In this document: piece by piece, positions 27,304-57,923 of the stretch
Layout: every line of letters begins with the position of its first letter
Position numbering within the stretch: the stretch's first letter is position 1
Source: Arenicellales bacterium
GTDB lineage: Bacteria > Pseudomonadota > Gammaproteobacteria > Arenicellales > JAJDZL01
DNA length: 64,000 bases
NCBI GenBank assembly: GCA_965116205.1
Contig: OZ220493.1
Location: forward strand, 1,412,510-1,476,509
Reading direction: 5' to 3'
Notes under the pieces: generated by a model
What the model was told of the DNA's origin: nothing
The model's database searches: none
Seen by the model: only the letters and a program-made list of their open reading frames with translations
Position numbers and translations under genes: made by a program

Positions 27304-27328
27304 ACATTTCCATCCAAGGAGTGAACTA

Positions 27329-32283: not shown

Positions 32284-32291
32284 TGAAGCCG

Positions 32292-41300: not shown

Positions 41301-44300
41301 CCGGCCACGGTGACCGAGGCCAGTGGCACCACGGCGGTGACGGTGACGGCGACGCGCGCGGGCACGGCGACGTCGACGACGGCCACCACCATCGCCATTG
41401 CGGTGACCAGTGGCACGGCGACGGCGGGCAACGATTTCAGCGAGGTGACCGGTTTCAACCTCACGGTGGCGGCCGGGGCGACGTCGGGCACGGCGAATTT
41501 CGATCTCGTCGTGACCGCCGACAGTCTGAGCGAGGTGAATGAAACGGTAACTGTCGGTGGTACTTTGCAGGGCAACACGTTCAATGGCACCACGGTGACC
41601 ATCACCGATGACGATGCGGTGCCGACGCTGAGCATCGCGGCGCCGATTGCGGCGGTGACCGAAGGCGACAGCGGCAGTACGAGCATGACGTTCACCGTCA
41701 CGCTGGGAGCCGTCAGCGGCCGGTCGGTGACGGTCGATTATGCGGTGGATGTCGCATCGACGGCGGCGGGCACGGATTTCACCGGGGGTGCCGGTACTTT
41801 GACTTTTGCGGCTGGTGAGACACAGCAGTCGATCACCGTCAGCGTCACCGGTGATGAGCTGGACGAGGTGGATGAGACAGTGGTGCTGAAGCTGTCGAAT
41901 CCCACCCACGCAACCATCGGTACTGCCACGGCGACGGGGACCATTACTGATGATGATGCTTCGCCGGTGCTGGCGGCGCTGTCGGCCGTATCGAAGAAGG
42001 TTGGTCAGACGGTGACCGTCGTGGCGTCAGCCACTGATGCCGATGCCGACACGATCAGCTATGCCTGGACGAAAGACAGCGGTCCGGCGCTGCCATCCGG
42101 TACTAAGTTCGATGTGGCGACGCTGACGTTCACGGCGGCTACGGTCGGTGCCTATGTGCTGACGGTGACCGCTTCGGACGGTAATGACAATGAAGACACC
42201 AAGACGGTCACCGTTACGGTCTCCGCCGCGGATACGGTGTCGGTGCCGAAGCAGGTGACGGTGGCCGAAGGCGGTGGCAGTGTGACGGTGAAGGTGGCGG
42301 CCAGTGCGGCACTGGGTCAGGCGGTGACCTTAGATGTGACCTATGGTGGTGCGGCCAGTCAAACGGCGGACTACGATGCCACGGCCGTTACATCGGTCGA
42401 TTTCGGCACGACGGACACGTTCAAGAACATCGTCATTCCGATTACCGATGACCGGTTGGATGAGGTGGATGAAACCTTCACGGTCACCATTGCGTTGGCG
42501 GGCAGTAGCACGCTACCGGCCGGCGTCATACTGGGCAATGCGGTGACCACGGTGACGATTACCGACAACGACACGGTGAGCACGAACTGGGCGTTGAGTG
42601 TGGAGCCGGCCACGGTGACCGAGGCGAGTGGCACCACGGCGGTGACGGTGACAGCGACGCGGGCCGGCACGGTGACCGCGGCGACGTCCACGACCCTTGC
42701 CATTGCGGTGACCGGGGGCACGGCGACGGCGGGGACCGATTTCGATGCGGTGACCGGTTTCAACATCATGGTAGCCGCCGGGGCGACGTCGGGTGAAGCG
42801 GATTTCGATCTCATGGTCACCGCCGACACTCTTGATGAGGTGGATGAGACGCTAACCGTCGGCGGCACGCTGTCCGGTGCCACGGTGTCCGGCACCACGG
42901 TGACCATCACCGATGATGATGCGCCGCCGGCACTGAGCATTGTGGCGCCGAGTGCGGCGGTGACCGAAGGCGACAGTGGCAGTACGGACATGACGTTCAG
43001 CGTCACGCTGGGGGCGGCCAGCGGTCGGTCGGTGACGGTGGACTATGCGGTGGATGCTACGTCAACGGCGGCCGCGGGTACGGATTTCACCGGGGGTGCC
43101 GGCACCTTGACCTTTGCCCCCGGCACGACACAGCAGTCGATCACCGTCAGCGTCACCGGCGATGAGCTGGACGAGGACGACGAGACGGTGGTGCTGAAGT
43201 TGTCGGATGCCACCCATGCGAGCATTGGTAGCGCCACGGCGATGGGGACCATCACCGATGATGACGCATCGCCGGTGCTGGCCGCACTTGAGAATGAGAC
43301 GGTGGCGACGGGAGGGACGGTGTCGGTGACGGCAGCGGCCACCGATGCCGACGGTGATACTGTAACGTATGTCTGGACGCGCAAGACCGGGGAGACAACT
43401 CCGGCACTGCCGAGCACCACCATGGATGCGGCGACGCTGTCCTTCACGGCGGGTACGGCCGGTGTCTATACGATGACGGTGACGGCCTCGGACGGCAACG
43501 GCAATTCAGCCACCGCGACGGTGGTGATCACGGTGACGGCGAAGGTCGTGGTGTCGGTGCCGAAGAACCTGACGGTGACCGAGGGTGACGATACCAGGGC
43601 ACGGGTGACCATTGCCACGGCCACGGCGTTCGGCGAGTCGGTCACCTTCGATGTCACTTACACCGATGGCACGGCGACCGGGCATGGTACGCTGGCCAGT
43701 GGCGATTATGACAACGATGCGGTGACTTCGGTCACGTTCAGCGGCACGGATACGGAGCAACACATCGATGTGCCGCTCAACGATGATGATTTGGATGAAG
43801 TGAGTGAGCGGTTTACGGTGGGCATTGCGCTGGCCACTGGCAGCACGCTGCCGGCGACGCATACGCTGGGCAATGCGGTGACCCGGGTGACCATCAATGA
43901 CGATGATGAGCCGCCGACGGTGAGCATTGCCGATGCGGCGGCGGTGACCGAAGGCGACAGTGGCGAGGCGATGATGACGTTCAATGTTTCGCTGTCGGCG
44001 GCGAGTGGCCGGGCGGTGACGGTGGACTATGCGGTGGATGCCGCGTCGACGGCGATGGCGGGTACGGATTTCACGGCGGTGTCGGGCACGCTGACGTTCA
44101 GTGCCGGTCAGACGCAGCAGTCGGTCGCGGTCACCGTCAAGGGTGACACGCTGGATGAGGCGGATGAGACGGTGGTGGTGAAGCTGTCGAATCAGGCCAA
44201 CGCCACTTTGGGTGCGGCCACCGGCAGTGGCACCATCACCGATGATGACACGCTGAGTACGAGCTGGGCGTTGAGTGTGACCCCGGCCACGGTGACCGAG

Positions 44301-47300
44301 GCCAGTGGCACCACGGCGGTGACGGTGACGGCGACGCGCGCGGGCACGGCGACGTCGACGACGGCCACCACCATCGCCATTGCGGTGACCAGTGGCACGG
44401 CGACGGCGGGCAACGATTTCAGCGAGGTGACGGATTTTGACCTCACGGTGGCCGCCGGGGCGACGTCGGGCACCGCGGATTTCGATCTCACCGTCACCGC
44501 CGACAGTCAGGACGAGGTCAATGAGACGGTGGCCGTCGATGGCACGCTGTCGAGCAACACGGTCACCGGCACCACGGTGACCATCACCGATGACGATGCC
44601 ATACCGGCACTGAGCATCGCGGCGCCGAGTGCGGCGGTGACCGAAGGCGACAGCGGCAGTACGGACATGACGTTCACCGTCACGCTGGGGGTCGTCAGCG
44701 GACGGCCGGTGACGGTCGATTATGCGGTGGATGCCACGGCGACGGCGACGGGTACGGATTTCACCGGGGGTGCCGGCACGCTGACGTTCAATGCCGGTGA
44801 GACACGGAAGTCGATCACCGTCAGCGTCACCGGTGATGAGCTGGACGAGGCGGACGAGACGGTGGTGCTGAAGCTGTCGGATGCCACCAATGCGAGCATT
44901 GGCACCGCCACGGCGACGGGGACCATTACCGATGATGATGCGCCGCCGGCACTGAGCATCGCGGCACCGAGTGCGGCGGTGACCGAAGGCGACAGTGGCA
45001 GTACGGACATGACGTTCACCGTCACGCTGGGGGCGGCCAGCGGTCGGTCGGTGACGGTGGACTATGCGGTGGATGCTACGTCAACGGCGGCCGCGGGTAC
45101 GGATTTCACCGGGGGTGCCGGCACCTTGACCTTTGCCCCCGGCACGACACAGCAGTCGATCACCGTCAGCGTCACCGGCGATGAGCTGGACGAGGACGAC
45201 GAGACGGTGGTGCTGAAGTTGTCGGATGCCACCCATGCGAGCATTGGTAGCGCCACGGCGATGGGGACCATCACCGATGATGACGCATCGCCGGTGCTGG
45301 CCGCACTTGAGAATGAGACGGTGGCGACGGGAGGGACGGTGTCGGTGACGGCAGCGGCCACCGATGCCGACGGTGATACTGTAACGTATGTCTGGACGCG
45401 CAAGACCGGGGAGACAACTCCGGCACTGCCGAGCACCACCATGGATGCGGCGACGCTGTCCTTCACGGCGGGTACGGCCGGTGTCTATACGATGACGGTG
45501 ACGGCCTCGGACGGCAACGGCAATTCAGCCACCGCGACGGTGGTGATCACGGTGACGGCGAAGGTCGTGGTGTCGGTGCCGAAGAACCTGACGGTGACCG
45601 AGGGTGACGATACCAGGGCACGGGTGACCATTGCCACGGCCACGGCGTTCGGCGAGTCGGTCACCTTCGACGTCACTTACACCGATGGCACGGCGACCGG
45701 GCATGGTACGCTGGCCAGTGGCGATTATGACAACGATGCGGTGACTTCGGTCACGTTCAGCGGCACGGATACGGAGCAACACATTGATGTGCCGCTCAAC
45801 GATGATGATTTGGATGAAGTGAGTGAGCGATTTACGGTGGGTATTGCGCTGGCCACTGGCAGCACGCTGCCGGCGACGCATACGCTGGGCAATGCGGTGA
45901 CCCGGGTGACCATCAATGACGATGATGAGCCGCCGACGGTGAGCATTGCCAATGCGGCGGCGGTGACCGAAGGCGACAGTGGCGAGGCGACGATGACGTT
46001 CAATGTTTCGCTGTCGGCGGCCAGCGGTCGGGCGGTGACGGTGGACTATGCGGTGGATGCCGCGACGACGGCGACCGCGGGTACGGATTTCACGGCGGTG
46101 TCGGGCACGCTGACGTTCAGTGCCGGTCAGACACAGAAGCCGATTGCGGTCACCGTCAAGGGAGACACGCTGGATGAGGCGGATGAGACGGTGGTGGTGA
46201 AGCTGTCGAATCAGGCCAACGCCACTTTGGGTACGGCCACCGGCAGTGGCACCATCACCGATGATGACACGCTGAGTACGAGCTGGGCGTTGAGTGTGAC
46301 CCCGGCCACGGTGACCGAGGCCAGTGGCACCACGGCGGTGACGGTGACGGCGACGCGCGCGGGCACGGCGACGTCGACGACGGCCACCACCATCGCCATT
46401 GCGGTGACCAGTGGCACGGCGACGGCGGGCAACGATTTCAGCGAGGTGACCGGTTTCAACCTCACGGTGGCGGCCGGGGCGACGTCGGGCACCGTGGATT
46501 TCAATCTCACTGTTACTGCTGATAGTCGGGACGAAGCGGATGAGACGGTGGCCGTCAATGGCACGCTGTCGAGCAACACGGTCACCGGCACCACGGTGAC
46601 CATTACTGATGACGATGCGACGCCGGTGCTGGCGGAGATTCCTAATGAGACGGTGAAGTTGGGTCAGGCGGTGACCATCACCGCGGTGGCGACCGAAGAC
46701 GATGGTGACACGGTCACGTACGTCTGGTCGCGCAAGCCCGGAGAAACGATGCCGGTCATACCGAACGGCACGGCACTGAATCAGGCACGGCTGACATTCA
46801 CGCCGCCGGCGGCGGGCACTTACACGATGACGGTCACGGCGTCGGATGGCAATGGCAACACGGACACCGAAGAGGTGACGATCACGGTGACGGCATCCAC
46901 GGCGAGTGTAGCTGCCGCGGTACCGGTGCCGGCGCAACCAACGGGTTTGACGACAAAGGTGAACCCAAATAACGGGATCATACTTTCTTGGACAGCAACT
47001 GGTGATACGACTATCACCGGTTGGGAGTATCGTATTAAAGAATTGTTAGCCGCGAGTCCTGCTTGGGGAAATAGCGTCAGAATTTTAGGGGCTGATTCTG
47101 GGACAAGAACAGTTGAAGTTTACACAAGAGCCAATTTCTGGCATGGCCAAAAACTGGAATTCCAAGTACGATCGGTCAACATATCTGGAAATAGTCCTTG
47201 GTCAAGAATAGCTTCTGCGACGGTTAGTAACTCTTGGAATTTATCATTTGAGGTTAAACCGGCTGAAATTAGAGTTGTCCAAGGTGAAACTGCTACCTAC

Positions 47301-50300
47301 ACATTGACAAATGTGGGGTACGGAGTCCCGGGAAGGGCTGAGCTTTCCAGTCGGGACAGTAGTGTCGCTACAGTACCTTCGACTGTGAACTTTGAAAGTA
47401 CCCGCGAAACATCCAAGCAAGTCACGGTAACAGGGGTTGCAGTTGGTAGTACGGTCATATCTCACGACGCCTTCTATCACAAATGGGGTAGCAGGCCAAT
47501 CAATTCCTTCGCCTCATTTGAGAACATGGCTACGGTCAAGGTGAGGGTGGTACCACAAAAACCTGCCAAGCCGACGGGCTTGACCGCCAGAGCGGGTAAC
47601 GCACAGGTCACACTCAGCTGGACAGACCCCGGTAATTCCGACATTACGGGGTGGGAGTATCAGCGAAAGATAAACTCCAGTATATACAGTTACCGTCCTT
47701 GGGTCCCCATACCGGATTCAAGTGCCAGTACAACGAGCTATACGGTAAAAAATCTGACTGGAAATGTGAGTTATGCTTTCAGAATTCGGGCAGTTAATGA
47801 TGCGGGTGGTAGTCCGCCCTCAGATGCGGCCGTAGCACAAGTACAGTACCAAGCCCCCGCTAAACCTATCGGGTTAAAGGCGACCGCGGATGATAAACAG
47901 ATTACGCTCAGTTGGACAAATCCCATCAATCCTAGCATTTCACGATGGGAGTATCAGCAAAAAGCCGGCGCGGGAAGGTATGGTGGTTGGATCAAAATGC
48001 AAGATTCGAATGCGGCCACGTGGAGATACACGGTACGGAATTTGAATAATGGTACGAACTATACATTTAAGATCCGGGCAGTGAATGTCACGTCTCAAGC
48101 AAGTGCACCCTCCGACGAAGTGACGATCGCACCGGTTGTGCCATCTATAGTCTCGGTGCCGGCGACTCTAATGGTGGCTGAGGGTGCTGGTAATGCAACG
48201 GTGACCATCACCACGGCTGCGGCCTTCAGTCAATCGGTGACGTTCGATGTCACCTATGGTGGCAGTTCGGCGACCGGGGCGAACAATCCGGCGAATGGTG
48301 ACTACGACAACGATGCGGTGACCGCGGTGACGTTCGGTGTGAGCGACACGACGAAGGACATTGTCATTCCGATCACTGATGATAGTCGCGACGAAAAAAA
48401 TGAAACGTTTACGGTAACAATTGCTCCAGCTGCTGACCTACCACATGGGTTTAAGTTGGGCACCACGAAGACTACCGTAACCATCACCGACGACGATGAA
48501 TCACCAGTACTAGCTGAAATTAATGATGTCACGATCAAATTAGGTGAGACGGTGAATATCACGGCCTCGGCGACCGATGGCGACAGTGACACGATCACTT
48601 ATGTTTGGACGAGATTGAATGGTGAAACGATACCGGTCTTACCGAGCGGCACTGACCTGACTAAGGCGCGTTTGACCTTCACGCCCTTGGTAGGTGGTGT
48701 AAGTCCTTTTGTAGGTTCTAGTGCGAGTTACACGATGACGGTGACGGCGACGGATAGCGACGGTAATAAGGACACCGAGCAGGTGGCGATCACGGTAGAT
48801 GAAGAGGTCGCAGTATCGGTGCCAGTGTCAGTGTCAGTGACAGAGGGGACAGATGCGAATGCGCGAATAACAATAACACCATCATCAACATTTAATAGTG
48901 CGACAACCTTCAACGTTAGTTACAGTGACGGTACGGCAACCGGGGCGAATGTTCCATCTGATGGTGACTATGACAATGATGCGGTGACACAGGTGACTCT
49001 CAGTGCGGGCGACACCGAGAAACACATTGACATCCCGATCACCGATGATGATCTGGATGAAGACGACGAGACGTTCACGGTGACAGTTGCGGCCGCCGCC
49101 GCTCTACCCGGTGGATTCGAACTGAGTAAGACCACGGTGACCATCACCGATGATGATGAGTCGCCGGAGCTGGCGGCACTGGACGATGTCACGGTGCAGC
49201 TGGGTCAGGCGGTGGATGTGACGGCATCGGCGACCGATGGCGATGGCGACACGGTCACTTATGCCTGGACGCGCAAGACCGGGGAAACGGTGCCGGCCAT
49301 CCCGAACGGCACGGCACTGAATGCGGCGCGGCTGACGTTCACGCCACCGGCGGCGGGCACTTACACGATGACGGTGACGGCGTCCGATGGCAATGACAAT
49401 ACGGACACTGCGGAGGTGACCATTACGGTGTCGGCGGCGGCCGTGGTGTCGGTGCCGGCGACGCTGACGGTGGCCGAGGCGGTGGGCGATGCGACGGTGA
49501 CGGTGACCACCACGGCGGCGTTCGGTGAATCGGTGACGCTGAATGTCACTTATGGTGGCAGTTCGGCGACCGGGGCCAGTAATCCGGCGAGTGGCGACTA
49601 CGACAATGATGCGGTGACCGCGGTGACGTTCGGTGCGGCGGACACCACGAAGGACATTGACATTCCGATCACCGATGATGATCTGGATGAAGCAGCTGAG
49701 ACGTTCACGGTGACCATTGCGGCGGCTTCGAGCGGGCTGCCGGCCGGCTGGGCGCTGGGTACCAAGAAGACCACGGTGACCATCACCGATGACGATGAGT
49801 CGCCGGAGCTGGCGGCACTGGACGATGTCACGGTGCAGCTGGGTCAGGCGGTGGATGTGACGGCGGTGGCGACCGATGGCGATGGCGACACGGTCACTTA
49901 TGCCTGGACGCGCAAGACCGGGGAAACGGTGCCGGCCATCCCGAACGGTACGACACTGAATGCGGCGCGGCTGACGTTCACGCCACCGGCGGCGGGCACT
50001 TACACGATGACGGTGACGGCGTCCGATGGCAATGACAATACGGACACTGCGGAGGTGACCATTACGGTGTCGGCGGCGGCCGTGGTGTCGGTGCCGGCGA
50101 CGCTGACGGTGGCCGAGGCGGTGGGCGATGCGACGGTGACGGTGACCACCACGGCGGCGTTCGGTGAATCGGTGACGCTGAATGTCACCTATGGTGGCAG
50201 TTCGGCGACCGGGGCCAGTAATCCGGCGAGTGGCGACTATGACAATGATGCGGTGACTGCGGTGACGTTCGGTGCGGCGGACACCACGAAGGACATTGAC

Positions 50301-53300
50301 ATTCCGATCACCGATGATGATCTGGATGAAGCAGCTGAGACGTTCACGGTGACCATTGCGGCGGCTTCGAGCGGGCTGCCGGCCGGCTGGACGCTGGGTA
50401 CCAAGAAGACCACGGTGACCATCACCGATGACGATGAGTCGCCGGAGCTGGCGGCACTGGACGATGTCACGGTGCAGCTGGGTCAGGCGGTGGATGTGAC
50501 GGCGGCGGCGACCGATGGCGATGGCGACACGGTCACTTATGCCTGGACGCGCAAGACCGGGGAAACGGTGCCGGCCATCCCGAACGGCACGGCACTGAAT
50601 GCGGCGCGGCTGACGTTCACGCCACCGGCGGCGGGCACTTACACGATGACGGTGACGGCGTCCGATGGCAATGACAATACGGACACTGCGGAGGTGACCA
50701 TTACGGTGTCGGCGGCGGCCGTGGTGTCGGTGCCGGCGACGCTGACGGTGGCCGAGGCGGTGGGCGATGCGACGGTGACGGTGACCACCACGGCGGCGTT
50801 CGGTGAATCGGTGACGCTGAATGTCACCTATGGTGGCAGTTCGGCGACCGGGGCCAGTAATCCGGCGAGTGGCGACTATGACAATGATGCGGTGACTGCG
50901 GTGACGTTCGGTGCGGCGGACACCACGAAGGACATTGACATTCCGATTACCGATGATGATCTGGATGAAGCAGCTGAGACGTTCACGGTGACCATTGCGG
51001 CAGCTTCGAGCGGGCTGCCGGCCGGCTGGACGCTGGGTACCAAGAAGACCACGGTGACCATCACCGATGACGATGAGTCGCCGGAGCTGGCGGCACTGGA
51101 CGATGTCACGGTGCAGCTGGGTCAGGCGGTGGATGTGACGGCGGCGGCGACCGATGGCGATGGCGACACGGTCACTTATGCCTGGACGCGCAAGACCGGG
51201 GAAACGGTGCCGGCCATCCCGAACGGCACGGCACTGAATGCGGCGCGGCTGACGTTCACGCCACCGGCGGCGGGCACTTACACGATGACGGTGACGGCGT
51301 CCGATAACAATGACAATACGGACACTGCGGAGGTGACCATTACGGTGTCGGCGGCGGCCGTGGTGTCGGTGCCGGCGACGCTGACGGTGGCCGAATCGGT
51401 GGGCGATGCGACGGTGACGGTGACCACCACGGCGGCGTTCGGTGAATCGGTGACGCTGAATGTCACCTATGGTGGCAGTTCGGCGACCGGGGCCAGTAAT
51501 CCGGCGAGTGGCGACTATGACAATGATGCGGTGACCGCGGTGACGTTCGGTGCGGCGGACACCACGAAGGACATTGACATTCCGATCACCGATGATGATC
51601 TGGATGAAGCAGCTGAGACGTTCACGGTGACCATTGCGGCGGCTTCGAGCGGGCTGCCGGCCGGCTGGACGCTGGGCACCAAGAAGACCACGGTGACCAT
51701 CACCGATGACGATGAGTCGCCGGAGCTGGCGGCACTGGACGATGTCACGGTGCAGCTGGGTCAGGCGGTGGATGTGACGGCGGCGGCGACCGATGGCGAT
51801 GGCGACACGGTCACTTATGCCTGGACGCGCAAGACCGGGGAAACGGTGCCGGCCATCCCGAACGGCACGGCACTGAATGCGGCGCGGCTGACGTTCACGC
51901 CACCGGCGGCGGGCACTTACACGATGACGGTGACGGCGTCCGATGGCAATGACAATACGGACACTGCGGAGGTGACCATTACGGTGTCGGCGGCGGCCGT
52001 GGTGTCGGTGCCGGCGACGCTGACGGTGGCCGAGGCGGTGGGCGATGCGACGGTGACGGTGACCACCACGGCGGCGTTCGGTGAATCGGTGACGCTGAAT
52101 GTCACCTATGGTGGCAGTTCGGCGACCGGGGCCAGTAATCCGGCGAGTGGCGACTATGACAATGATGCGGTGACCGCGGTGACGTTCGGTGCGGCGGACA
52201 CCACGAAGGACATTGACATTCCGATCACCGATGATGATCTGGATGAAGCAGCTGAGACGTTCACGGTGACCATTGCGGCAGCTTCGAGCGGGCTGCCGGC
52301 CGGCTGGACGCTGGGCACCAAGAAGACCACGGTGACCATCACCGATGACGATGAGTCGCCGGAGCTGGCGGCACTGGACGATGTCACGGTGCAGCTGGGT
52401 CAGGCGGTGGATGTGACGGCGGCGGCGACCGATGGCGATGGCGACACGGTCACTTATGCCTGGACGCGCAAGACCGGGGAAACGGTGCCGGCCATCCCGA
52501 ACGGCACGGCACTGAATGCGGCGCGGCTGACGTTCACGCCACCGGCGGCGGGCACTTACACGATGACGGTGACGGCGTCCGATGGCAATGACAATACGGA
52601 CACTGCGGAGGTGACCATTACGGTGTCGGCGGCGGCCGTGGTGTCGGTGCCGGCGACGCTGACGGTGGCCGAGGCGGTGGGCGATGCGACGGTGACGGTG
52701 ACCACCACGGCGGCGTTCGGTGAATCGGTGACGCTGAATGTCACCTATGGTGGCAGTTCGGCGACCGGGGCCAGTAATCCGGCGAGTGGCGACTATGACA
52801 ATGATGCGGTGACTGCGGTGACGTTCGGTGCGGCGGACACCACGAAGGACATTGACATTCCGATCACCGATGATGATCTGGATGAAGCAGCTGAGACGTT
52901 CACGGTGACCATTGCGGCGGCTTCGAGCGGGCTGCCGGCCGGCTGGACGCTGGGTACCAAGAAGACCACGGTGACCATCACCGATGACGATGAGTCGCCG
53001 GAGCTGGCGGCACTGGACGATGTCACGGTGCAGCTGGGTCAGGCGGTGGATGTGACGGCATCGGCGACCGATGGCGATGGCGACACGGTCACTTATGCCT
53101 GGACGCGCAAGACCGGGGAAACGGTGCCGGCCATCCCGAACGGCACGGCACTGAATGCGGCGCGGCTGACGTTCACGCCACCGGCGGCGGGCACTTACAC
53201 GATGACGGTGACGGCGTCCGATGGCAATGACAATACGGACACTGCGGAGGTGACCATTACGGTGTCGGCGGCGGCCGTGGTGTCGGTGCCGGCGACGCTG

Positions 53301-56300
53301 ACGGTGGCCGAGGCGGTGGGCGATGCGACGGTGACGGTGACCACCACGGCGGCGTTCGGTGAATCGGTGACGCTGAATGTCACTTATGGTGGCAGTTCGG
53401 CGACCGGGGCCAGTAATCCGGCGAGTGGCGACTACGACAATGATGCGGTGACCGCGGTGACGTTCGGTGCGGCGGACACCACGAAGGACATTGACATTCC
53501 GATCACCGATGATGATCTGGATGAAGCAGCTGAGACGTTCACGGTGACCATTGCGGCGGCTTCGAGCGGGCTGCCGGCCGGCTGGGCGCTGGGTACCAAG
53601 AAGACCACGGTGACCATCACCGATGACGATGAGTCGCCGGAGCTGGCGGCACTGGACGATGTCACGGTGCAGCTGGGTCAGGCGGTGGATGTGACGGCGG
53701 TGGCGACCGATGGCGATGGCGACACGGTCACTTATGCCTGGACGCGCAAGACCGGGGAAACGGTGCCGGCCATCCCGAACGGTACGACACTGAATGCGGC
53801 GCGGCTGACGTTCACGCCACCGGCGGCGGGCACTTACACGATGACGGTGACGGCGTCCGATGGCAATGACAATACGGACACTGCGGAGGTGACCATTACG
53901 GTGTCGGCGGCGGCCGTGGTGTCGGTGCCGGCGACGCTGACGGTGGCCGAGGCGGTGGGCGATGCGACGGTGACGGTGACCACCACGGCGGCGTTCGGTG
54001 AATCGGTGACGCTGAATGTCACCTATGGTGGCAGTTCGGCGACCGGGGCCAGTAATCCGGCGAGTGGCGACTATGACAATGATGCGGTGACTGCGGTGAC
54101 GTTCGGTGCGGCGGACACCACGAAGGACATTGACATTCCGATTACCGATGATGATCTGGATGAAGCAGCTGAGACGTTCACGGTGACCATTGCGGCGGCT
54201 TCGAGCGGGCTGCCGGCCGGCTGGACGCTGGGCACCAAGAAGACCACGGTGACCATCACCGATGACGATGAGTCGCCGGAGCTGGCGGCACTGGACGATG
54301 TCACGGTGCAGCTGGGTCAGGCGGTGGATGTGACGGCGGTGGCGACCGATGGCGATGGCGACACGGTCACTTATGCCTGGACGCGCAAGACCGGGGAAAC
54401 GGTGCCGGCCATCCCGAACGGCACGGCACTGAATGCGGCGCGGCTGACGTTCACGCCACCGGCGGCGGGCACTTACACGATGACGGTGACGGCGTCCGAT
54501 GGCAATGACAATACGGACACCGCGGAGGTGACCATTACGGTGTCGGCGGCGGCCGTGGTGTCGGTGCCGGCGACGCTGACGGTGGCCGAGGCGGTGGGCG
54601 ATGCGACGGTGACGGTGACCACCACGGCGGCGTTCGGTGAATCGGTGACGCTGAATGTCACTTATGGTGGCAGTTCGGCGACCGGGGCCAGTAATCCGGC
54701 GAGTGGCGACTACGACAATGATGCGGTGACTGCGGTGACGTTCGGTGCGGCGGACACCACGAAGGACATTGACATTCCGATCACCGATGATGATCTGGAT
54801 GAAGCAGCTGAGACGTTCACGGTGACCATTGCGGCGGCTTCGAGCGGGCTGCCGGCCGGCTGGACGCTGGGCACCAAGAAGACCACGGTGACCATCACCG
54901 ATGACGATGAGTCGCCGGAGCTGGCGGCACTGGACGATGTCACGGTGCAGCTGGGTCAGGCGGTGGATGTGACGGCGGCGGCGACCGATGGCGATGGCGA
55001 CACGGTCACTTATGCCTGGACGCGCAAGACCGGGGAAACGGTGCCGGCCATCCCGAACGGCACGGCACTGAATGCGGCGCGGCTGACGTTCACGCCACCG
55101 GCGGCGGGCACTTACACGATGACGGTGACGGCGTCCGATGGCAATGACAATACGGACACTGCGGAGGTGACCATTACGGTGTCGGCGGCGGCCGTGGTGT
55201 CGGTGCCGGCGACGCTGACGGTGGCCGAGGCGGTGGGCGATGCGACGGTGACGGTGACCACCACGGCGGCGTTCGGTGAATCGGTGACGCTGAATGTCAC
55301 TTATGGTGGCAGTTCGGCGACCGGGGCCAGTAATCCGGCGAGTGGCGACTATGACAATGATGCGGTGACTGCGGTGACGTTCGGTGCGGCGGACACCACG
55401 AAGGACATTGACATTCCGATCACCGATGATGATCTGGATGAAGCAGCTGAGACGTTCACGGTGACCATTGCGGCGGCTTCGAGCGGGCTGCCGGCCGGCT
55501 GGACGCTGGGCACCAAGAAGACCACGGTGACCATCACCGATGACGATGAGTCGCCGGAGCTGGCGGCACTGGACGATGTCACGGTGCAGCTGGGTCAGGC
55601 GGTGGATGTGACGGCGGCGGCGACCGATGGCGATGGCGACACGGTCACTTATGCCTGGACGCGCAAGACCGGGGAAACGGTGCCGGCCATCCCGAACGGC
55701 ACGGCACTGAATGCGGCGCGGCTGACGTTCACGCCACCGGCGGCGGGCACTTACACGATGACGGTGACGGCGTCCGATGGCAATGACAATACGGACACTG
55801 CGGAGGTGACCATTACGGTGTCGGCGGCGGCCGTGGTGTCGGTGCCGGCGACGCTGACGGTGGCCGAGGCGGTGGGCGATGCGACGGTGACGGTGACCAC
55901 CACGGCGGCGTTCGGTGAATCGGTGACGCTGAATGTCACTTATGGTGGCAGTTCGGCGACCGGGGCCAGTAATCCGGCGAGTGGCGACTACGACAATGAT
56001 GCGGTGACCGCGGTGACGTTCGGTGCGGCGGACACCACGAAGGACATTGACATTCCGATTACCGATGATGATCTGGATGAAGCAGCTGAGACGTTCACGG
56101 TGACCATTGCGGCGGCTTCGAGCGGGCTGCCGGCCGGCTGGACGCTGGGTACCAAGAAGACCACGGTGACCATCACCGATGATGATGCGGTCGGAGTGAC
56201 GTTATCAGTGACTGAACTGACTGTAGTAGAGGGAAGTGAAAACAGTTACACGGTAGTCTTGAATTCCGAACCGACGGCTGATGTAACCATTGCGATCAGC

Positions 56301-57923
56301 GGCGCTGCCGGTGACGTGACCTTGGATAAATCATCGCTAACCTTTACGACATCCAATTGGTCTACGGCGCAGACCGTGACAGTGTCGGCAATGAAAGATG
56401 AAGACCTGATCGAGGATGCTGACGTGACGCTGACGCACAGTGCCAGTGGCGGAGACTATGACTCAGTTACCATTGATTCTGTGACCGTAAAAGTGACCGA
56501 AAACGATGCATCAAATGATGAGCAGATGGAACGTGTCAACCGTGTCCACTCTGAACTGTTGCCTCGTTTGGTTGAAGAGATGGTATCGGTGGATGTAGTC
56601 ATTCGTCGCATCGAAGATTTAGAAGGTGGTGCACCTACGGGCAACTCGTTCCGTTTTGGTACATCACCCGCTACGATTCAGCCAATGGGGCTTCACGATT
56701 ATCAATGGTCGACAGAATCATCTCAATCGCGACCGACTCTTCAGGAGTTGATGAATGGCGCCGCTTTCAACATGTCGGTTGATGATACCGGGACTTCGGA
56801 GGGTGGTTTGGTATTTTGGGGTCAAAGTGATTGGCTGTCACTCTCAGATTCAGGAAACAACGTATCTTGGGATGGTGAAATGTGGTCAGCCAATTTTGGA
56901 ATTGACACTCGTATCCGTTCAGACCTGTTGGCCGGTGTTGCAGTATCTCGGCACGAAGGTCAATTCGATGCGGAAACCGACGACCGGAAGTCCGTCTACG
57001 AAACGGGACTGAACTCAGTGCAACCTTATATGGCATGGCTGTTGGAGGATGGATCAAATCTGTGGACCAGTGCTGGTTACGGTGATGGTAGAGTACGCGT
57101 CAAGGAGGAAGGCAGCGATTCTTGGCAGACTGTCGATCTGAAGATATCCAACGTCGCGGTGGGCGGTCGCGGCATGTTGGATTTGGATCCGCATATGATT
57201 GAGGGTGGCACGACCCGTCTTGCCATCAAAGGTGAGGGATCTTTCGTTAGGGGCAAAACAACAGCCAGTGGGGTTTTGCAAGCTCTGAGAGTGAATACCC
57301 ACCGATTACGCCTGTTGTTACAAGGCTCGCATGAACGAACACTTTCGAATGGTGAGCAACTGACTTCGACTTTGGAGATGGGCGTTCGCTACGATGGAGG
57401 TGAAACTGCTGAACAGAACAACTTGGAAGTTGGCGCCAGTGTGAGTTATCGTAACCCTGCCTCTCGACTGACGCTTGAGGCTCATGCTAGAGGTTTGGTT
57501 GCAGCTGAGAAAGAGCGCAAAGAATGGGGCGTCGGCGGTCGCGTGCAATTGGATTCAGATGCGAAGGGGCGCGGCCTTTACCTGAAGATGATGCCTACTT
57601 ATGGAAATGTGGAAGATGGATTCAATCAGTTGTTTAATCACAAATCGGCATCAGCAGTGAGCTCGGAGAGTGGATTTAATCCTAGATTTCATCTGGAGGC
57701 TGAGCTGGGTTACGGAGTTGCCGTACCCGTTCCAGGACCATTGGCAGTATTGAGCCCCTATGCTGGATTTTCATTGGCTGAAGAAGGCAACCGAACTTTC
57801 CGACTCGGCACGCGTTACAGCCACACAGAGAATCTTTCTATAAGTATTGAAGCTGAACGCAGTTTAAATATTGAGTCCATTGCAGAGCATGGGATCGCGC
57901 TACGTGGCGAGATTCGCTGGTAG
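32292..57923 (+). CDS. giant (8,543 aa) secreted modular surface protein: FN3 + Calx-beta-like + PKD/Ig-like modules with C-terminal autotransporter-like beta-barrel
   Basis: A single uninterrupted ORF (tracked from 32271). ATG 32292 yields a classical Sec signal. About 19 FN3-like modules (..L.W..P....I..WEYQQK......W......T..Y.V..L.NGT.Y.F.VRAVN..G.G..S). Many Calx-beta-like modules (VTEGDSG...MTF.V.L...SGR.VTVDYAV....TA.AGTDF....GTLTF..G.TQ..I.V.V.GD.LDE.DETVV.KLS......TITDDD). PKD/cadherin-like Ig modules (ATD.DGDTVTY.WTRK.GE..P......A.LTFT...GTYTMTVTASDGN.N). The protein ends ...LRGEIRW. Confidence 0.9.
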   Translation: MATRQRMSCCLNAALLTLLLLVVAVSPVTQAQSIPPQPEPAQLFKAFAGDQEITVTWDSPRLAENFLRWELSIQPRGRGKIARADVVFITERRASYSYTYREFTELNSSGGYKETKTRLKNGQTYVIDIVARYRLNESTTAGSDYKSVSATPVPKPAKPVNFRATSGNEQITLAWQQLTDQSTVTGMVESISRWEYRQKIGAAPYGMWTAIPSSEGETASHVVTGLNNGTVYRFKVRAVNPTGNGVESAEVTATPIPSGKVSRLSVDSNRITEGNAGIKHVNIYITLGEAAPTGGFGLGLQFVQRRNQGAVSFMDGYGCGGGVARNAPDPKADMCWIRRNVTIPAGERTGRFVIGIIGDTDVEVDESFAGLYATGRVDGWGQINPQIPSLTIVNDDGIPTGLVATPGNQQVTLSWTGPRDNNITRWEYQQKEGADGFGAWQTINPRSNTYVVENLKNDVAYAFKVRAVYRTINGPGPPSEEVSATPTAPRIIIPIREMTLDEGGHGSYNVQVSLRPTENVTVVVSGATDGVSVSPSSLTFTPVNWNIPQNIRVDVGEDDDAVSEDVTLKHRATGSGFAAAVSQAVVVRVRDNDSTGLTVSVPALTITEGSRAAYTMKLNSEPTDDVTVTVGGVSGDISVSSNSLTFTALNWNIPQPVMVSAGDDADAKNDAPVTLTHSAAGGDYDSVTVELMVTVTDDDPPIQPKNFTVSAGNQQATLTWDDPENPNITGWEYQQRTGDGSYGAWVPIANSDATTTTHPVTGLTNGTVYAFKLRAVNSAGNGVESTEVTAVPFGAGKKITLSTAKTRITEGDDGFKLIDISITIGETVTASDGLQITFEINKTASTATTIDPGNYLASCTEPNPADADQCWIVAPNRGSVSTGSSSSNYLIGILGDTRAENDETIVLKAVPDDVAYTGGSITLTIVDDDASPTAPTDFSVMPGNAQVELSWTGPDDARITSWEYRQKTGSGTFGNWISMPDSDATTRTHTVSNLSNSTVYAFKVRAVNSFGAGTESPEKSATPRAPPASPTGLTATAGDGQVSLSWTDPNDVSITRWEYQQKAGGSFGSWMAIAGSGASTTTYTVIELTNGTEYAFKVRAVNRSGEGGESAEATATPVPPVPLAPTGLTATAGNTQVALSWNNLRDASTIRWEYQQKAGGSYGSWMPIPGSDATTMGHTVTGLVNGTIYTFKVRAVNLGGSGAESGEASATPLLPPLKPTGFNATKGEGLVKLSWNNLNNASITRWEYQQRAGGGNYGNWTTMLGSGAATTQHEVARLTNGTTYTFKIRAVNTAGPGAVSDAVSVTPLARPAKPTGFSATSDFKSVKLSWTNPNNNSITRWEYQQRAGTGGSYGLWMAIPNSSASTTTYTVPDLNNGTAYSLRVRAVNEIGAGRPSDVTVATPALQPPHQPTGLSAEASDGQVVLRWHNPNNSRITGYQYQQKESSGNYGGWQTITGSSATTTTHTVTGLTNWTTYTFQIRAVNSAGNSPASAEVQSTPIPRTAKPTGFKAVPGNRQVILTWDDPKDTDIKGWFIRYKPRFLNKWYRHVIIPGSDRSTTSFTVTRLVVTLDRGNTKSDPLNNGTKYDFQVSAYRSTRDFPDDLLWSNVVSATPLPPPARPTGFTAVPVGDGAVQLNWNNPNNASITKWQYQQQEGSNTPSWLDVKNSGADTTKQVVTGLTNGTEYTFKIRAVNIAGNGAESGAATVTPTQPGADVSPLSITVEENDKEDYEIKLKTLPSGNVTIVVSGASGDVSVSPNRLTFTPLNWSAAQKVTVSVAKDDDAIDDEDVTLLHRASGGGYNSVSIDSVTVSVNDTTPTLQLLTAPSSVTEGMDISLTVTSDRALTGTHPISLSLADRDASGFTAADISGSLGRRNFDAIFGETASTTGTVAIPTVLDSDKTEGTETYRITLHDATDYEVGSNVEVDGELVDATNLVSVPQTQSLNEGGSNTAVTISTDASFGTSVKFNVSYNDISATGAIDPTNGDYDSDAVSSVTFDTSETSKDIEITLNDDGLDEADETFTVTVALADGSTLPAGFALDNTVTMVTIVDDDETPVLEEIADVTVDVGQDVDITAVATDGDNDAVSYSWARKAGETSPAIPRNTNLTAARLTFTTTSRGTYTMTVTAADGHGNSDTEEVVITVYLPVPVAPTGFRAQAGDAEVVLSWNNPNNPSIDGWEYQQKEGSGNFGDWLPISGADASTTTHTVTGLTNDAVYTFKIRAMNVTGDGDESTEATATPRLAPPDKPTKFTAVAGDMKVTLSWKDPKNASIIRWEYHQYDDANEIASGWRSIPNSGPSTKTYTVTGLANTFTYVFKVRAVNVAGNGTESEEMVAIPELPRPKKPQSISALPSNRQIVLTWDNANNPSIDVWEYQQREDDGDFGEWLPFSETSTTTMHTVTNLTNGVTYAFKVRAVNASGPGDESDEVTAVPILKPPKPTGFSADPGDGQVTLIWTNPNDQLIEGWQVQFKLSIQVGWPTPTEVPDGTATDYVVRNLQNLEYDFRIRAYYSGSNFGRWSDTRSTTPVQKGVTVSTSKLTVDEGGQGKYTVKLNTIPTSEVTIDVLVGAGSDDVSVKPNRLTFTSRNWNKPKTVKVSAAKDEDAVTEAAVELMHSAKGGGYDSVGIDSVTVTVTETTPILQLLTDPVAVTEGADISLTVTSNRALTGTLAVNLTLADRGASGFSAADIQGELGPRNFDATFGDSPSMTGTVVIPTSADSVGENAETYQITLNDTAEYELGNDTTADGTLNDDGKGVVPATLVSVPATLTVTEGTDANATVTITSGVAFGQAVTFNVTYGGTATGAAVPGAGDDYDSDAATQVQFNATDTTKDIVIPLNDDALNEAAETITVTVAVVGGRLPDGFALGNAVTTVTITDDDDVPTVSIANAAAVTEGDSGDATMTFNVSLSAASGRAVTVDYAVDAATTATAGTDFTAVSGTLTFSAGQTQKPIAVTVKGDTLDEADETVVVKLSNQANATLGTATGSGTITDDDTLSTSWALSVTPATVTEASGTTAVTVTATRAGTATSTTATTIAIAVTSGTATAGNDFSEVTGFNLTVAAGATSGTANFDLVVTADSLSEVNETVTVGGTLQGNTFNGTTVTITDDDAVPTLSIAAPIAAVTEGDSGSTSMTFTVTLGAVSGRSVTVDYAVDVASTAAGTDFTGGAGTLTFAAGETQQSITVSVTGDELDEVDETVVLKLSNPTHATIGTATATGTITDDDASPVLAALSAVSKKVGQTVTVVASATDADADTISYAWTKDSGPALPSGTKFDVATLTFTAATVGAYVLTVTASDGNDNEDTKTVTVTVSAADTVSVPKQVTVAEGGGSVTVKVAASAALGQAVTLDVTYGGAASQTADYDATAVTSVDFGTTDTFKNIVIPITDDRLDEVDETFTVTIALAGSSTLPAGVILGNAVTTVTITDNDTVSTNWALSVEPATVTEASGTTAVTVTATRAGTVTAATSTTLAIAVTGGTATAGTDFDAVTGFNIMVAAGATSGEADFDLMVTADTLDEVDETLTVGGTLSGATVSGTTVTITDDDAPPALSIVAPSAAVTEGDSGSTDMTFSVTLGAASGRSVTVDYAVDATSTAAAGTDFTGGAGTLTFAPGTTQQSITVSVTGDELDEDDETVVLKLSDATHASIGSATAMGTITDDDASPVLAALENETVATGGTVSVTAAATDADGDTVTYVWTRKTGETTPALPSTTMDAATLSFTAGTAGVYTMTVTASDGNGNSATATVVITVTAKVVVSVPKNLTVTEGDDTRARVTIATATAFGESVTFDVTYTDGTATGHGTLASGDYDNDAVTSVTFSGTDTEQHIDVPLNDDDLDEVSERFTVGIALATGSTLPATHTLGNAVTRVTINDDDEPPTVSIADAAAVTEGDSGEAMMTFNVSLSAASGRAVTVDYAVDAASTAMAGTDFTAVSGTLTFSAGQTQQSVAVTVKGDTLDEADETVVVKLSNQANATLGAATGSGTITDDDTLSTSWALSVTPATVTEASGTTAVTVTATRAGTATSTTATTIAIAVTSGTATAGNDFSEVTDFDLTVAAGATSGTADFDLTVTADSQDEVNETVAVDGTLSSNTVTGTTVTITDDDAIPALSIAAPSAAVTEGDSGSTDMTFTVTLGVVSGRPVTVDYAVDATATATGTDFTGGAGTLTFNAGETRKSITVSVTGDELDEADETVVLKLSDATNASIGTATATGTITDDDAPPALSIAAPSAAVTEGDSGSTDMTFTVTLGAASGRSVTVDYAVDATSTAAAGTDFTGGAGTLTFAPGTTQQSITVSVTGDELDEDDETVVLKLSDATHASIGSATAMGTITDDDASPVLAALENETVATGGTVSVTAAATDADGDTVTYVWTRKTGETTPALPSTTMDAATLSFTAGTAGVYTMTVTASDGNGNSATATVVITVTAKVVVSVPKNLTVTEGDDTRARVTIATATAFGESVTFDVTYTDGTATGHGTLASGDYDNDAVTSVTFSGTDTEQHIDVPLNDDDLDEVSERFTVGIALATGSTLPATHTLGNAVTRVTINDDDEPPTVSIANAAAVTEGDSGEATMTFNVSLSAASGRAVTVDYAVDAATTATAGTDFTAVSGTLTFSAGQTQKPIAVTVKGDTLDEADETVVVKLSNQANATLGTATGSGTITDDDTLSTSWALSVTPATVTEASGTTAVTVTATRAGTATSTTATTIAIAVTSGTATAGNDFSEVTGFNLTVAAGATSGTVDFNLTVTADSRDEADETVAVNGTLSSNTVTGTTVTITDDDATPVLAEIPNETVKLGQAVTITAVATEDDGDTVTYVWSRKPGETMPVIPNGTALNQARLTFTPPAAGTYTMTVTASDGNGNTDTEEVTITVTASTASVAAAVPVPAQPTGLTTKVNPNNGIILSWTATGDTTITGWEYRIKELLAASPAWGNSVRILGADSGTRTVEVYTRANFWHGQKLEFQVRSVNISGNSPWSRIASATVSNSWNLSFEVKPAEIRVVQGETATYTLTNVGYGVPGRAELSSRDSSVATVPSTVNFESTRETSKQVTVTGVAVGSTVISHDAFYHKWGSRPINSFASFENMATVKVRVVPQKPAKPTGLTARAGNAQVTLSWTDPGNSDITGWEYQRKINSSIYSYRPWVPIPDSSASTTSYTVKNLTGNVSYAFRIRAVNDAGGSPPSDAAVAQVQYQAPAKPIGLKATADDKQITLSWTNPINPSISRWEYQQKAGAGRYGGWIKMQDSNAATWRYTVRNLNNGTNYTFKIRAVNVTSQASAPSDEVTIAPVVPSIVSVPATLMVAEGAGNATVTITTAAAFSQSVTFDVTYGGSSATGANNPANGDYDNDAVTAVTFGVSDTTKDIVIPITDDSRDEKNETFTVTIAPAADLPHGFKLGTTKTTVTITDDDESPVLAEINDVTIKLGETVNITASATDGDSDTITYVWTRLNGETIPVLPSGTDLTKARLTFTPLVGGVSPFVGSSASYTMTVTATDSDGNKDTEQVAITVDEEVAVSVPVSVSVTEGTDANARITITPSSTFNSATTFNVSYSDGTATGANVPSDGDYDNDAVTQVTLSAGDTEKHIDIPITDDDLDEDDETFTVTVAAAAALPGGFELSKTTVTITDDDESPELAALDDVTVQLGQAVDVTASATDGDGDTVTYAWTRKTGETVPAIPNGTALNAARLTFTPPAAGTYTMTVTASDGNDNTDTAEVTITVSAAAVVSVPATLTVAEAVGDATVTVTTTAAFGESVTLNVTYGGSSATGASNPASGDYDNDAVTAVTFGAADTTKDIDIPITDDDLDEAAETFTVTIAAASSGLPAGWALGTKKTTVTITDDDESPELAALDDVTVQLGQAVDVTAVATDGDGDTVTYAWTRKTGETVPAIPNGTTLNAARLTFTPPAAGTYTMTVTASDGNDNTDTAEVTITVSAAAVVSVPATLTVAEAVGDATVTVTTTAAFGESVTLNVTYGGSSATGASNPASGDYDNDAVTAVTFGAADTTKDIDIPITDDDLDEAAETFTVTIAAASSGLPAGWTLGTKKTTVTITDDDESPELAALDDVTVQLGQAVDVTAAATDGDGDTVTYAWTRKTGETVPAIPNGTALNAARLTFTPPAAGTYTMTVTASDGNDNTDTAEVTITVSAAAVVSVPATLTVAEAVGDATVTVTTTAAFGESVTLNVTYGGSSATGASNPASGDYDNDAVTAVTFGAADTTKDIDIPITDDDLDEAAETFTVTIAAASSGLPAGWTLGTKKTTVTITDDDESPELAALDDVTVQLGQAVDVTAAATDGDGDTVTYAWTRKTGETVPAIPNGTALNAARLTFTPPAAGTYTMTVTASDNNDNTDTAEVTITVSAAAVVSVPATLTVAESVGDATVTVTTTAAFGESVTLNVTYGGSSATGASNPASGDYDNDAVTAVTFGAADTTKDIDIPITDDDLDEAAETFTVTIAAASSGLPAGWTLGTKKTTVTITDDDESPELAALDDVTVQLGQAVDVTAAATDGDGDTVTYAWTRKTGETVPAIPNGTALNAARLTFTPPAAGTYTMTVTASDGNDNTDTAEVTITVSAAAVVSVPATLTVAEAVGDATVTVTTTAAFGESVTLNVTYGGSSATGASNPASGDYDNDAVTAVTFGAADTTKDIDIPITDDDLDEAAETFTVTIAAASSGLPAGWTLGTKKTTVTITDDDESPELAALDDVTVQLGQAVDVTAAATDGDGDTVTYAWTRKTGETVPAIPNGTALNAARLTFTPPAAGTYTMTVTASDGNDNTDTAEVTITVSAAAVVSVPATLTVAEAVGDATVTVTTTAAFGESVTLNVTYGGSSATGASNPASGDYDNDAVTAVTFGAADTTKDIDIPITDDDLDEAAETFTVTIAAASSGLPAGWTLGTKKTTVTITDDDESPELAALDDVTVQLGQAVDVTASATDGDGDTVTYAWTRKTGETVPAIPNGTALNAARLTFTPPAAGTYTMTVTASDGNDNTDTAEVTITVSAAAVVSVPATLTVAEAVGDATVTVTTTAAFGESVTLNVTYGGSSATGASNPASGDYDNDAVTAVTFGAADTTKDIDIPITDDDLDEAAETFTVTIAAASSGLPAGWALGTKKTTVTITDDDESPELAALDDVTVQLGQAVDVTAVATDGDGDTVTYAWTRKTGETVPAIPNGTTLNAARLTFTPPAAGTYTMTVTASDGNDNTDTAEVTITVSAAAVVSVPATLTVAEAVGDATVTVTTTAAFGESVTLNVTYGGSSATGASNPASGDYDNDAVTAVTFGAADTTKDIDIPITDDDLDEAAETFTVTIAAASSGLPAGWTLGTKKTTVTITDDDESPELAALDDVTVQLGQAVDVTAVATDGDGDTVTYAWTRKTGETVPAIPNGTALNAARLTFTPPAAGTYTMTVTASDGNDNTDTAEVTITVSAAAVVSVPATLTVAEAVGDATVTVTTTAAFGESVTLNVTYGGSSATGASNPASGDYDNDAVTAVTFGAADTTKDIDIPITDDDLDEAAETFTVTIAAASSGLPAGWTLGTKKTTVTITDDDESPELAALDDVTVQLGQAVDVTAAATDGDGDTVTYAWTRKTGETVPAIPNGTALNAARLTFTPPAAGTYTMTVTASDGNDNTDTAEVTITVSAAAVVSVPATLTVAEAVGDATVTVTTTAAFGESVTLNVTYGGSSATGASNPASGDYDNDAVTAVTFGAADTTKDIDIPITDDDLDEAAETFTVTIAAASSGLPAGWTLGTKKTTVTITDDDESPELAALDDVTVQLGQAVDVTAAATDGDGDTVTYAWTRKTGETVPAIPNGTALNAARLTFTPPAAGTYTMTVTASDGNDNTDTAEVTITVSAAAVVSVPATLTVAEAVGDATVTVTTTAAFGESVTLNVTYGGSSATGASNPASGDYDNDAVTAVTFGAADTTKDIDIPITDDDLDEAAETFTVTIAAASSGLPAGWTLGTKKTTVTITDDDAVGVTLSVTELTVVEGSENSYTVVLNSEPTADVTIAISGAAGDVTLDKSSLTFTTSNWSTAQTVTVSAMKDEDLIEDADVTLTHSASGGDYDSVTIDSVTVKVTENDASNDEQMERVNRVHSELLPRLVEEMVSVDVVIRRIEDLEGGAPTGNSFRFGTSPATIQPMGLHDYQWSTESSQSRPTLQELMNGAAFNMSVDDTGTSEGGLVFWGQSDWLSLSDSGNNVSWDGEMWSANFGIDTRIRSDLLAGVAVSRHEGQFDAETDDRKSVYETGLNSVQPYMAWLLEDGSNLWTSAGYGDGRVRVKEEGSDSWQTVDLKISNVAVGGRGMLDLDPHMIEGGTTRLAIKGEGSFVRGKTTASGVLQALRVNTHRLRLLLQGSHERTLSNGEQLTSTLEMGVRYDGGETAEQNNLEVGASVSYRNPASRLTLEAHARGLVAAEKERKEWGVGGRVQLDSDAKGRGLYLKMMPTYGNVEDGFNQLFNHKSASAVSSESGFNPRFHLEAELGYGVAVPVPGPLAVLSPYAGFSLAEEGNRTFRLGTRYSHTENLSISIEAERSLNIESIAEHGIALRGEIRW
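35085..37416 (+). repeat. eight consecutive FN3-like modules (about 290 bp each), diverged
   Basis: Module starts: PTDFSVMPGNAQVELSW, PTGLTATAGDGQVSLSW, PTGLTATAGNTQVALSW, PTGFNATKGEGLVKLSW, PTGFSATSDFKSVKLSW, PTGLSAEASDGQVVLRW, PTGFKAVPGNRQVILTW, PTGFTAVPVGDGAVQLNW. Confidence 0.8.
38731..39872 (+). repeat. four consecutive FN3-like modules
   Basis: PTGFRAQAGDAEVVLSW, PTKFTAVAGDMKVTLSW, PQSISALPSNRQIVLTW, PTGFSADPGDGQVTLIW, each followed by a W.YQ.. and ..F.VRA.. core. Confidence 0.75.
40938..46609 (+). repeat. Calx-beta-rich block with nested kb-scale duplications (offsets 2,982 and 2,019 bp)
   Basis: A segment starting GTGAGCATTGCC recurs at 40938, 43920 and 45939. 42902-44590 is repeated at 44921-46609. 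The core, about 42960-43975 versus 44979-45994, differs at only about 8 positions by my reading. Confidence 0.8.
49158..56186 (+). repeat. 11 tandem, in-frame, near-identical 639-bp (213-aa) units, each one PKD/Ig-like + one Calx-beta-like module
   Basis: GAGTCGCCGGAGCTGG starts at 49158, 49797, 50436, 51075, 51714, 52353, 52992, 53631, 54270, 54909 and 55548. Units 5 and 6 differ at 3 of 639 nt by my reading. A diverged unit precedes the array (about 48495-49157). Confidence 0.9.
56502..57920 (+). other. C-terminal helical linker + autotransporter-like outer-membrane beta-barrel domain
   Basis: Helix-prone EQMERVNRVHSELLPRLVEEMVSVDVVIRRIEDLEG, then alternating-pattern strands (VFWGQSDWLSLS, WSANFGIDTRI, LAGVAVSRHEG, LWTSAGYGDGRVRV, FHLEAELGYGVAV, LSISIEAERSL). 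The terminal residues are GEIRW, i.e. aromatic. Confidence 0.6.

Follow-up and report, generated by a model that had tools for sequence, protein, structure and literature searches.

We analyzed a 64,000-nucleotide stretch of Arenicellales bacterium contig OZ220493.1 (the window), in which a giant open reading frame (ORF) at 32292..57923 (+ strand) ends in a domain related to the beta-domains of autotransporters. The ORF is a single unbroken frame of ~8,543 aa from an ATG at 32292; the ORF listing starts it at a TTG at 32271 (32271..57923, 8,550 codons from the TTG). The ATG at 32292 is the probable start and would open a Sec-type signal peptide, MATRQRMSCCLNAALLTLLLLVVAVSPVTQAQ (32292..32387, + strand), which we read by eye from the translation, not with a predictor. 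Its n-region is basic, its core is hydrophobic, and its end resembles a cleavage site (TQA/AQ). The passenger (32388..56501, + strand), recognized by Pfam scan and repeat search, consists of arrays of beta-sandwich modules. It is ~8,000 aa long and contains FN3 (~13), Calx-beta (~24) and PKD/K319L-like (~16) modules as determined by Pfam scan.

An earlier note on this DNA had described the C-terminal ~470 aa (56502-57923) as an autotransporter translocator ending in Trp. The limits were correct. Positions 56502-57920 encode 473 aa at the 3' end of the one intact giant ORF, the last residue is Trp, and the stop codon is at 57921-57923. The composition also drops back here to the style of the 5' end of the gene, as the note had said: the GC fraction is 0.52/0.50 over 56-58 kb and 0.47-0.52 at the 5' end, compared to 0.64-0.66 in the repeat blocks.

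We found that the domain begins with a conserved helical module. The helix-prone stretch noticed after the last Ig-like module, EQMERVNRVHSELLPRLVEEMVSVDVVIRRIEDLEG, corresponds to two alpha-helices in both of our AlphaFold2 models (domain residues 2-27 and 30/31-41; 56505..56624, + strand), with a predicted local distance difference test score (pLDDT) of 86-96 in the deeper model. This region is kept across the family, with the consensus R..rvN...LP.varA...l.Avt.Rie in the family alignment, and the helices are a candidate pore-traversing or plug segment. They are followed by a variable, low-confidence linker (residues 42-78; 56625..56735, + strand) that has pLDDT <50 at residues 54-75 in the deeper model and alignment gaps at 46-48 and 64-70. 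Next is a conserved pre-barrel motif, TLQELMNGAAFNMSV (residues 79-92; 56736..56777, + strand), with the family consensus L.elL.GssF.LPL. AlphaFold2 predicts a short helix plus a strand at residues 80-92. The earlier note had expected a pore-traversing helix followed by the barrel. In the models the helix does not abut strand 1, as it does in solved autotransporters: ~60 residues, including the conserved motif, lie between the two.

The rest of the domain (residues 103-473; 56808..57920, + strand) is predicted to be an 18-stranded beta-barrel. AlphaFold2 was run twice, with alignments of 12 and 58 sequences, giving mean pLDDT 76.7 and predicted template modeling score (pTM) 0.73 with 12 sequences, and pLDDT 85.7 and pTM 0.80 with 58. 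The same 18 strands were present in both models, between residues 103 and 471, and formed an unbroken up-down meander with pLDDT >90 in both. All of the turns are short except for the one long variable loop, between s13 and s14 (residues 370-395; 57609..57686, + strand). This loop of 26 residues has pLDDT <50 at 373-391 and a gap and an insertion at 384-385 in the family alignment; it would be extracellular if s1 starts at the periplasm. The last strand, EHGIALRGEIRW (57885..57920, + strand), has alternating hydrophobic residues, resembles the beta-signal of the machinery for beta-barrel assembly (BAM), and brings the protein to an end in ...IALRGEIRW with the terminal Trp.

The 13 short strands named in the earlier note all fall inside predicted strands (s1-5, 8, 10, 11, 13, 14, 16, 17 and 18). 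Five strands were absent from its list: s6 (209-229), s7 (236-253), s9 (286-300), s12 (340-350) and s15 (415-426). The 13 listed and five missed strands therefore make up the predicted total of 18. The structure prediction that the note had proposed as a check did yield a barrel preceded by helices, but a barrel of 18 strands and not of 12.

Other properties of the region are consistent with a barrel of this size. There are 20.6 aa per strand (371 aa/18), equal to the density in classical barrels (255 aa/12). Hydrophobicity alternates in the strands throughout the family, most strongly in s9-s18. The family alignment is nearly free of indels outside of two variable regions, which makes it unlikely that the barrel has 12 strands and very long loops. 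In Foldseek searches of the PDB, the top matches were 22-strand TonB-dependent receptors (TM-score by query [TMq] 0.41-0.47; identity 7-11%), followed by LptD and then the 16-strand CdiB (TMq 0.38). Autotransporter barrels ranked lower, with a poor or partial fit. The barrel of BrkA gave a TM-score by target (TMt) of 0.51-0.59 with a root-mean-square deviation (rmsd) of 6-7 Å (6.1 Å at TMt 0.59) and the highest identity of all, 16%; EspP and AIDA-I gave TMt 0.40-0.46. Based on this ranking and fit, the model is a barrel of more than 12 strands that has no solved counterpart of equal size.

One hairpin in the barrel weakly resembles another. The s8-s9 hairpin (residues 262-300, 57285-57401; consensus RLRLaLEGSHe...LTPsLEvGl) aligns with s14-s15 (residues 396-426, 57687-57779; consensus RLdAElGYGf...lLTPY.GlsL) with an hhalign E-value of 0.059. 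This similarity hints that the extra strands may have arisen through duplication of a hairpin.

The sequence homology of the domain is to autotransporters. A search against autotransporter and outer membrane protein (OMP) profiles, also proposed in the earlier note, identified PF03797 (autotransporter beta-domain) above its cut-off as the sole significant Pfam family in the 473 aa (E=5.5e-7; 30 bits, cut-off 26). The match covers residues 109-229 (56826..57188, + strand) and profile positions 7-127 of 255. PF03797 matched 39 of the 54 family members scanned; the lowest E-value was 1.3e-15. In six relatives it aligns over profile positions 1-207, that is, over the first ~200 residues of the barrel region or about strands 1-9/10. 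Past the end of that alignment ~170 residues remain, compared to the ~48 profile positions that are left. It seems that the first 9-10 strands align with a classical 12-strand barrel and that the ~170 further residues add strands to give the 18 in the model. No POTRA, Bac_surface_Ag or ShlB family, and no TonB box, plug domain (PF07715) or TonB_dep_Rec barrel family, was found in the domain in a Pfam scan that included matches up to E=1. Pfam scans found no RTX family in either the domain or the passenger.

We searched for relatives and found a very large, uncharacterized family that is prominent in the genomes of sponge symbionts. Word-indexed searches yielded 11 relatives with the single sequence and 54 with a profile. 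An exhaustive profile search of 1.84 billion representative proteins yielded 10,482 representatives at E<=1e-3 and 6,141 at E<=1e-30; more than 6,000 representative clusters (at 50% identity) carry the domain. Among the matches listed (n=150), proteins ranged from 448 to 7,149 aa and nearly all had a full-length match at or near the C-terminus. Of the 209 relatives retrieved, 188 have the end of the domain no more than 3 residues from the C-terminus, and the terminal residue of 183 of those 188 is aromatic (W in 124, F in 58, Y in 1). In the retrieved members the domain is always a C-terminal fusion to adhesion-type modules. The passengers of the 54 scanned members contain Calx-beta, FN3, cadherin, Big, LapA, PKD, leucine-rich repeat (LRR) and Spondin_N families, and no pertactin or beta-helix family.

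A scan of genomes yielded 519 relatives, of which the best 80 are all from metagenome-assembled genomes (MAGs), from Alpha- and Gammaproteobacteria, Binatia, Thermoanaerobaculia/Acidobacteria, Nitrospirales, Nitrospinales and Thermodesulfobacteriota. Several of these 80 are from organisms named as sponge symbionts (Ca. Poriferihabitaceae, Ca. Porisulfidus and Ca. Spongiihabitans). Also among the best 80, many genomes have multiple copies, with at least 10 in one (Thermohalobaculum sp.). This distribution suggests habitat-linked horizontal spread. No gene recurred downstream, any one gene being present in at most 5 of the 80 related loci, and the lack of a recurrent neighbor fits a self-contained system.

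Our preferred interpretation, which we consider fairly probable, is that the domain is the translocator and anchor of a giant Sec-exported adhesin, and that it is an expanded barrel sharing ancestry with the autotransporter (type V) beta-domain. The protein would be exported by Sec through its N-terminal signal peptide, a step evident in the sequence itself. The barrel would then be inserted by BAM, using the C-terminal aromatic beta-signal. By analogy with types Va and Ve, the passenger would be translocated from C- to N-terminus as a hairpin, through or alongside the barrel, driven by the beta-sandwich modules folding in sequence outside the cell. The ~100-residue pre-barrel module (two helices, variable linker and short motif) probably occupies the lumen of the model barrel and tethers the passenger, and the helical part is predicted to remain in the pore as plug and tether. 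As a matter of speculation, the wider barrel could be an adaptation to the helical module or to the Ig-like passengers.

Of the earlier note's central claim, that this is an autotransporter translocator, a good part stands: the PF03797 homology, the Sec signal, the helical segment, the terminal aromatic residue and the lack of a conserved partner. A helix abutting strand 1, as in solved autotransporters, is not supported. The 12-stranded barrel is not supported either: both AlphaFold2 models have 18 strands, the PF03797 alignment stops at profile position ~207, and the Foldseek matches fit a large barrel. That is, the domain is homologous to an autotransporter translocator and appears to work like one, with 18 predicted strands in place of 12. 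The note had also treated the threading of such a passenger as an open question, for which the type Ve intimins and invasins provide some precedent (PMC6555100).

Several observations weigh against the expanded barrel. The Pfam score of this domain is just 4 bits over the cut-off and the match spans 121 residues. An NCBIfam scan of the domain, which included autotransporter models, gave no match. We also searched the PDB by sequence, using the single sequence as well as profiles of 12 and 54 sequences, and recovered no chain of an autotransporter or of any other OMP; passenger columns had contaminated the 54-sequence profile, whose matches were limited to Calx-beta and Ig folds. Both the number of strands and the closure of the barrel come only from AlphaFold2 secondary-structure output and Foldseek scores. 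Mean-field direct coupling analysis (DCA) gave no signal for pairing of s1 with s18, in a test underpowered at 254 sequences (effective number of sequences, Meff, 165); in the DCA ladder test adjacent hairpins were just ~1.5 standard deviations over background. Lastly, the helix is ~60 residues from strand 1, unlike in solved autotransporters, and its placement in the pore is thus unproven. An hhalign comparison of the family profile to a single Ag43 beta-domain sequence gave no signal, one sequence being too weak a target.

Some of these points bear on the alternative that we rank as the main rival: the protein is a regular type Va autotransporter whose barrel has 12 strands, and the extra ~120 residues are an inserted loop, a periplasmic domain or long loops that AlphaFold2 mis-merged into one sheet. 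In its favor, the domain has PF03797 homology, BrkA is the structural match of highest identity (TMt 0.59), s1-s10 together with s17-s18 would total 12 strands, and the s1-s18 contact was not confirmed by covariation. Nonetheless, we consider this unlikely. Both AlphaFold2 runs gave an unbroken meander of 18 strands at pLDDT >90, and autotransporter barrels fell below 22-strand receptors in Foldseek, with an rmsd of 6-7 Å. The strands that would have to be an insertion, s11-s16, show more lipid-like alternation than any others in the domain, and they are strongly conserved, almost without indels. In addition, the sole long linker divides the strands 13 + 5, which does not match a 12 + 6 arrangement.

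We think it less likely again that the barrel is a mere anchor or pore, that the likeness to autotransporters is architectural only, and that the passenger is carried to the surface by a different system or remains in the periplasm. A passenger of ~8,000 aa is far larger than any known to use type Va, giant Ig-like adhesins such as LapA, SiiE and MpIBP are typically substrates of type 1 secretion, and a LapA domain is present in some relatives. In this protein, however, the Sec signal is N-terminal, the C-terminus is the barrel itself with no RTX or type 1 secretion system (T1SS) signal, and there are no ATP-binding cassette (ABC) transporter, membrane-fusion protein or TolC genes nearby and no conserved partner in the 80 loci. 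The constant C-terminal fusion to adhesion-type modules in the members retrieved also counts against this alternative. Type 1 secretion in particular was rejected, given the N-terminal Sec signal, the lack of a C-terminal RTX/T1SS signal and the lack of transporter genes nearby. The least probable of the alternatives, in our judgment very improbable, is that the domain is of another OMP class (a porin, TonB-dependent-like or Omp85-like protein) and that the PF03797 match reflects generic beta-barrel similarity. TonB-dependent receptors, LptD and CdiB do lead the Foldseek ranking, and PF13505 has weak matches in a few relatives. But the TM-scores to those classes are only about 0.3-0.45, with 7-12% identity; the Pfam scan detected neither a TonB box or plug-domain family nor a POTRA family; and PF03797 is significant and exceeds its gathering score in most relatives, whereas all PF13505 matches are below the cut-off for that family. 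Membership in the TonB-dependent or Omp85 families was rejected: their defining domains were absent from the Pfam scan.

The passenger has features of its own. There are 11 tandem 639-nt units at ~49128-56150 with 98-100% nucleotide identity. Each unit encodes a PKD and a Calx-beta module (213 aa), and older, diverged copies are also present (also 40880-46900). The repeat blocks are 64-66% GC, compared to 43-52% for both gene ends and the flanks. Near-identical, GC-rich repeats suggest recent expansion or concerted evolution, or a repeat cassette of foreign origin. Calx-beta, the most abundant module in the passenger, is a building block of the sponge Aggregation Factor and is also prominent in literature on that factor. 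Speculatively, the symbiont adhesin might mimic or bind the aggregation factor of the host. At the other end of the gene, a homopolymer run (T6 G11, 32267-32283) ends 8 nt upstream of the probable ATG at 32292. This run could be, or could overlap, the ribosome-binding site of the giant ORF. Homopolymer tracts of this kind give slipped-strand phase variation in surface adhesins.

No secretion genes (ABC transporter, membrane-fusion protein or TolC) flank the giant ORF in the window. Its upstream neighbors are an alpha/beta hydrolase, aprBA, a sulfatase and a defense-like cluster, and its downstream neighbors an SNF2 helicase and a SWIM protein. The genes aprB and aprA (adenosine 5'-phosphosulfate reductase; 26839-29287) adjoin the sulfatase and a low-molecular-weight phosphatase, and the locus points to a sulfur-oxidizing or sulfate-reducing lifestyle of the host organism. 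From these genes and the relatives found, the organism would be a sulfur-metabolizing bacterium with kin in sponge-associated lineages. Large genes at 2986-14997 encode DUF499, DUF7680, a metallo-beta-lactamase-fold protein, DUF1156 (methylase-like) and an SNF2/DEAD helicase with a PLD nuclease domain; this cluster looks like a phage-defense island of the DISARM/BREX type. Three successive ORFs at 17951-22980, of 522 aa each, are a tandem triplication of an uncharacterized ATPase-nuclease, and the first has AAA-ATPase_like and PD-(D/E)XK (PDDEXK_9) domains.

It has long been debated how passengers get across the outer membrane, and the narrow pore of the 12-strand barrel is central to that debate. 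If our interpretation is correct, then an 18-strand barrel derived from autotransporters is a natural experiment on whether a wider pore permits another mode of translocation, given its constant fusion to beta-sandwich or LRR passengers of up to >8,000 residues. It would also give the 'eukaryotic-like' adhesion proteins, which have been noted in sponge symbionts for a long time, a concrete path of export. The relatives that we checked have no functional name despite the size of the family, so that assigning a structure and a function to the domain would annotate many genes together.

It is possible, although we would put this somewhat below an even chance, that the family is an undescribed subclass of type V secretion. 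Such a subclass would have an 18-strand autotransporter-derived barrel with a conserved module of two helices and a motif in its lumen. It would be dedicated to long, animal-like adhesion arrays (FN3, Calx-beta, cadherin, PKD and LRR) and would occur in many copies per genome across at least 8 phyla or classes whose MAGs bear sponge-symbiont names, which would suggest that it spread horizontally within sponge microbiomes and helps in attaching to or recognizing the host. Our full-text search of the literature, in an incomplete collection, found no description of an 18-strand autotransporter barrel. The type V barrels listed in a review (PMC6555100) have 12 strands (Va, Vc and Ve), 16 strands (Vb and Vd) or 8 strands (the proposed Vf), and none has 18.

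The domain shares most with the type Va autotransporters (BrkA, EspP, AIDA-I, NalP and Ag43; PF03797). The order of Sec signal, passenger, helical segment and C-terminal barrel is the same, there is PF03797 homology over the first ~10 strands, the terminal residue is aromatic and there is no partner gene. In contrast to the 12 strands and ~255 aa of the type Va barrel, this one has 18 predicted strands and ~370 aa. In solved autotransporters the helix abuts strand 1 and spans the pore; here, ~60 residues and a conserved motif separate the two. The type Va passenger is a beta-helix, whereas this one is made up of ~8,000 aa of FN3, Calx-beta and PKD arrays. The TpsB proteins of type Vb (FhaC and CdiB) also have a larger barrel and an N-terminal helix in the lumen, a position proposed for the helices here, but they have 16 strands, POTRA domains, a passenger that is a separate polypeptide and no detected sequence homology to this domain. 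The giant adhesins secreted by type 1 systems (LapA, SiiE and MpIBP/BapA-like) are of the same size class and have an Ig-like/Calx-beta-like repetitive extender, and a LapA domain is found in some members of our family. They have a C-terminal T1SS signal, an ABC/MFP (membrane-fusion protein)/TolC apparatus and an N-terminal retention module; this protein, in contrast, carries a Sec signal at its N-terminus and a barrel at its C-terminus.

The combination of parts has a forerunner in sponge symbionts. Rubin-Blum et al. (2019) described eukaryotic-like proteins with Pfam autotransporter beta-domains in methanotrophic symbionts of sponges (PMC6474228), that is, the same kind of fusion of eukaryote-like adhesion domains to the Pfam autotransporter beta-domain. 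The Pfam label served there only to infer secretion, in a passage that gives no barrel size, linker module or family extent. For export of the passenger, the best precedent is type Ve, in which intimin and invasin likewise carry an attached string of Ig-like domains. Those proteins differ in having an N-terminal barrel (the inverted order) of 12 strands, a LysM periplasmic domain and another Pfam family. They secrete their Ig-like arrays by way of a hairpin, powered by sequential folding (PMC6555100).

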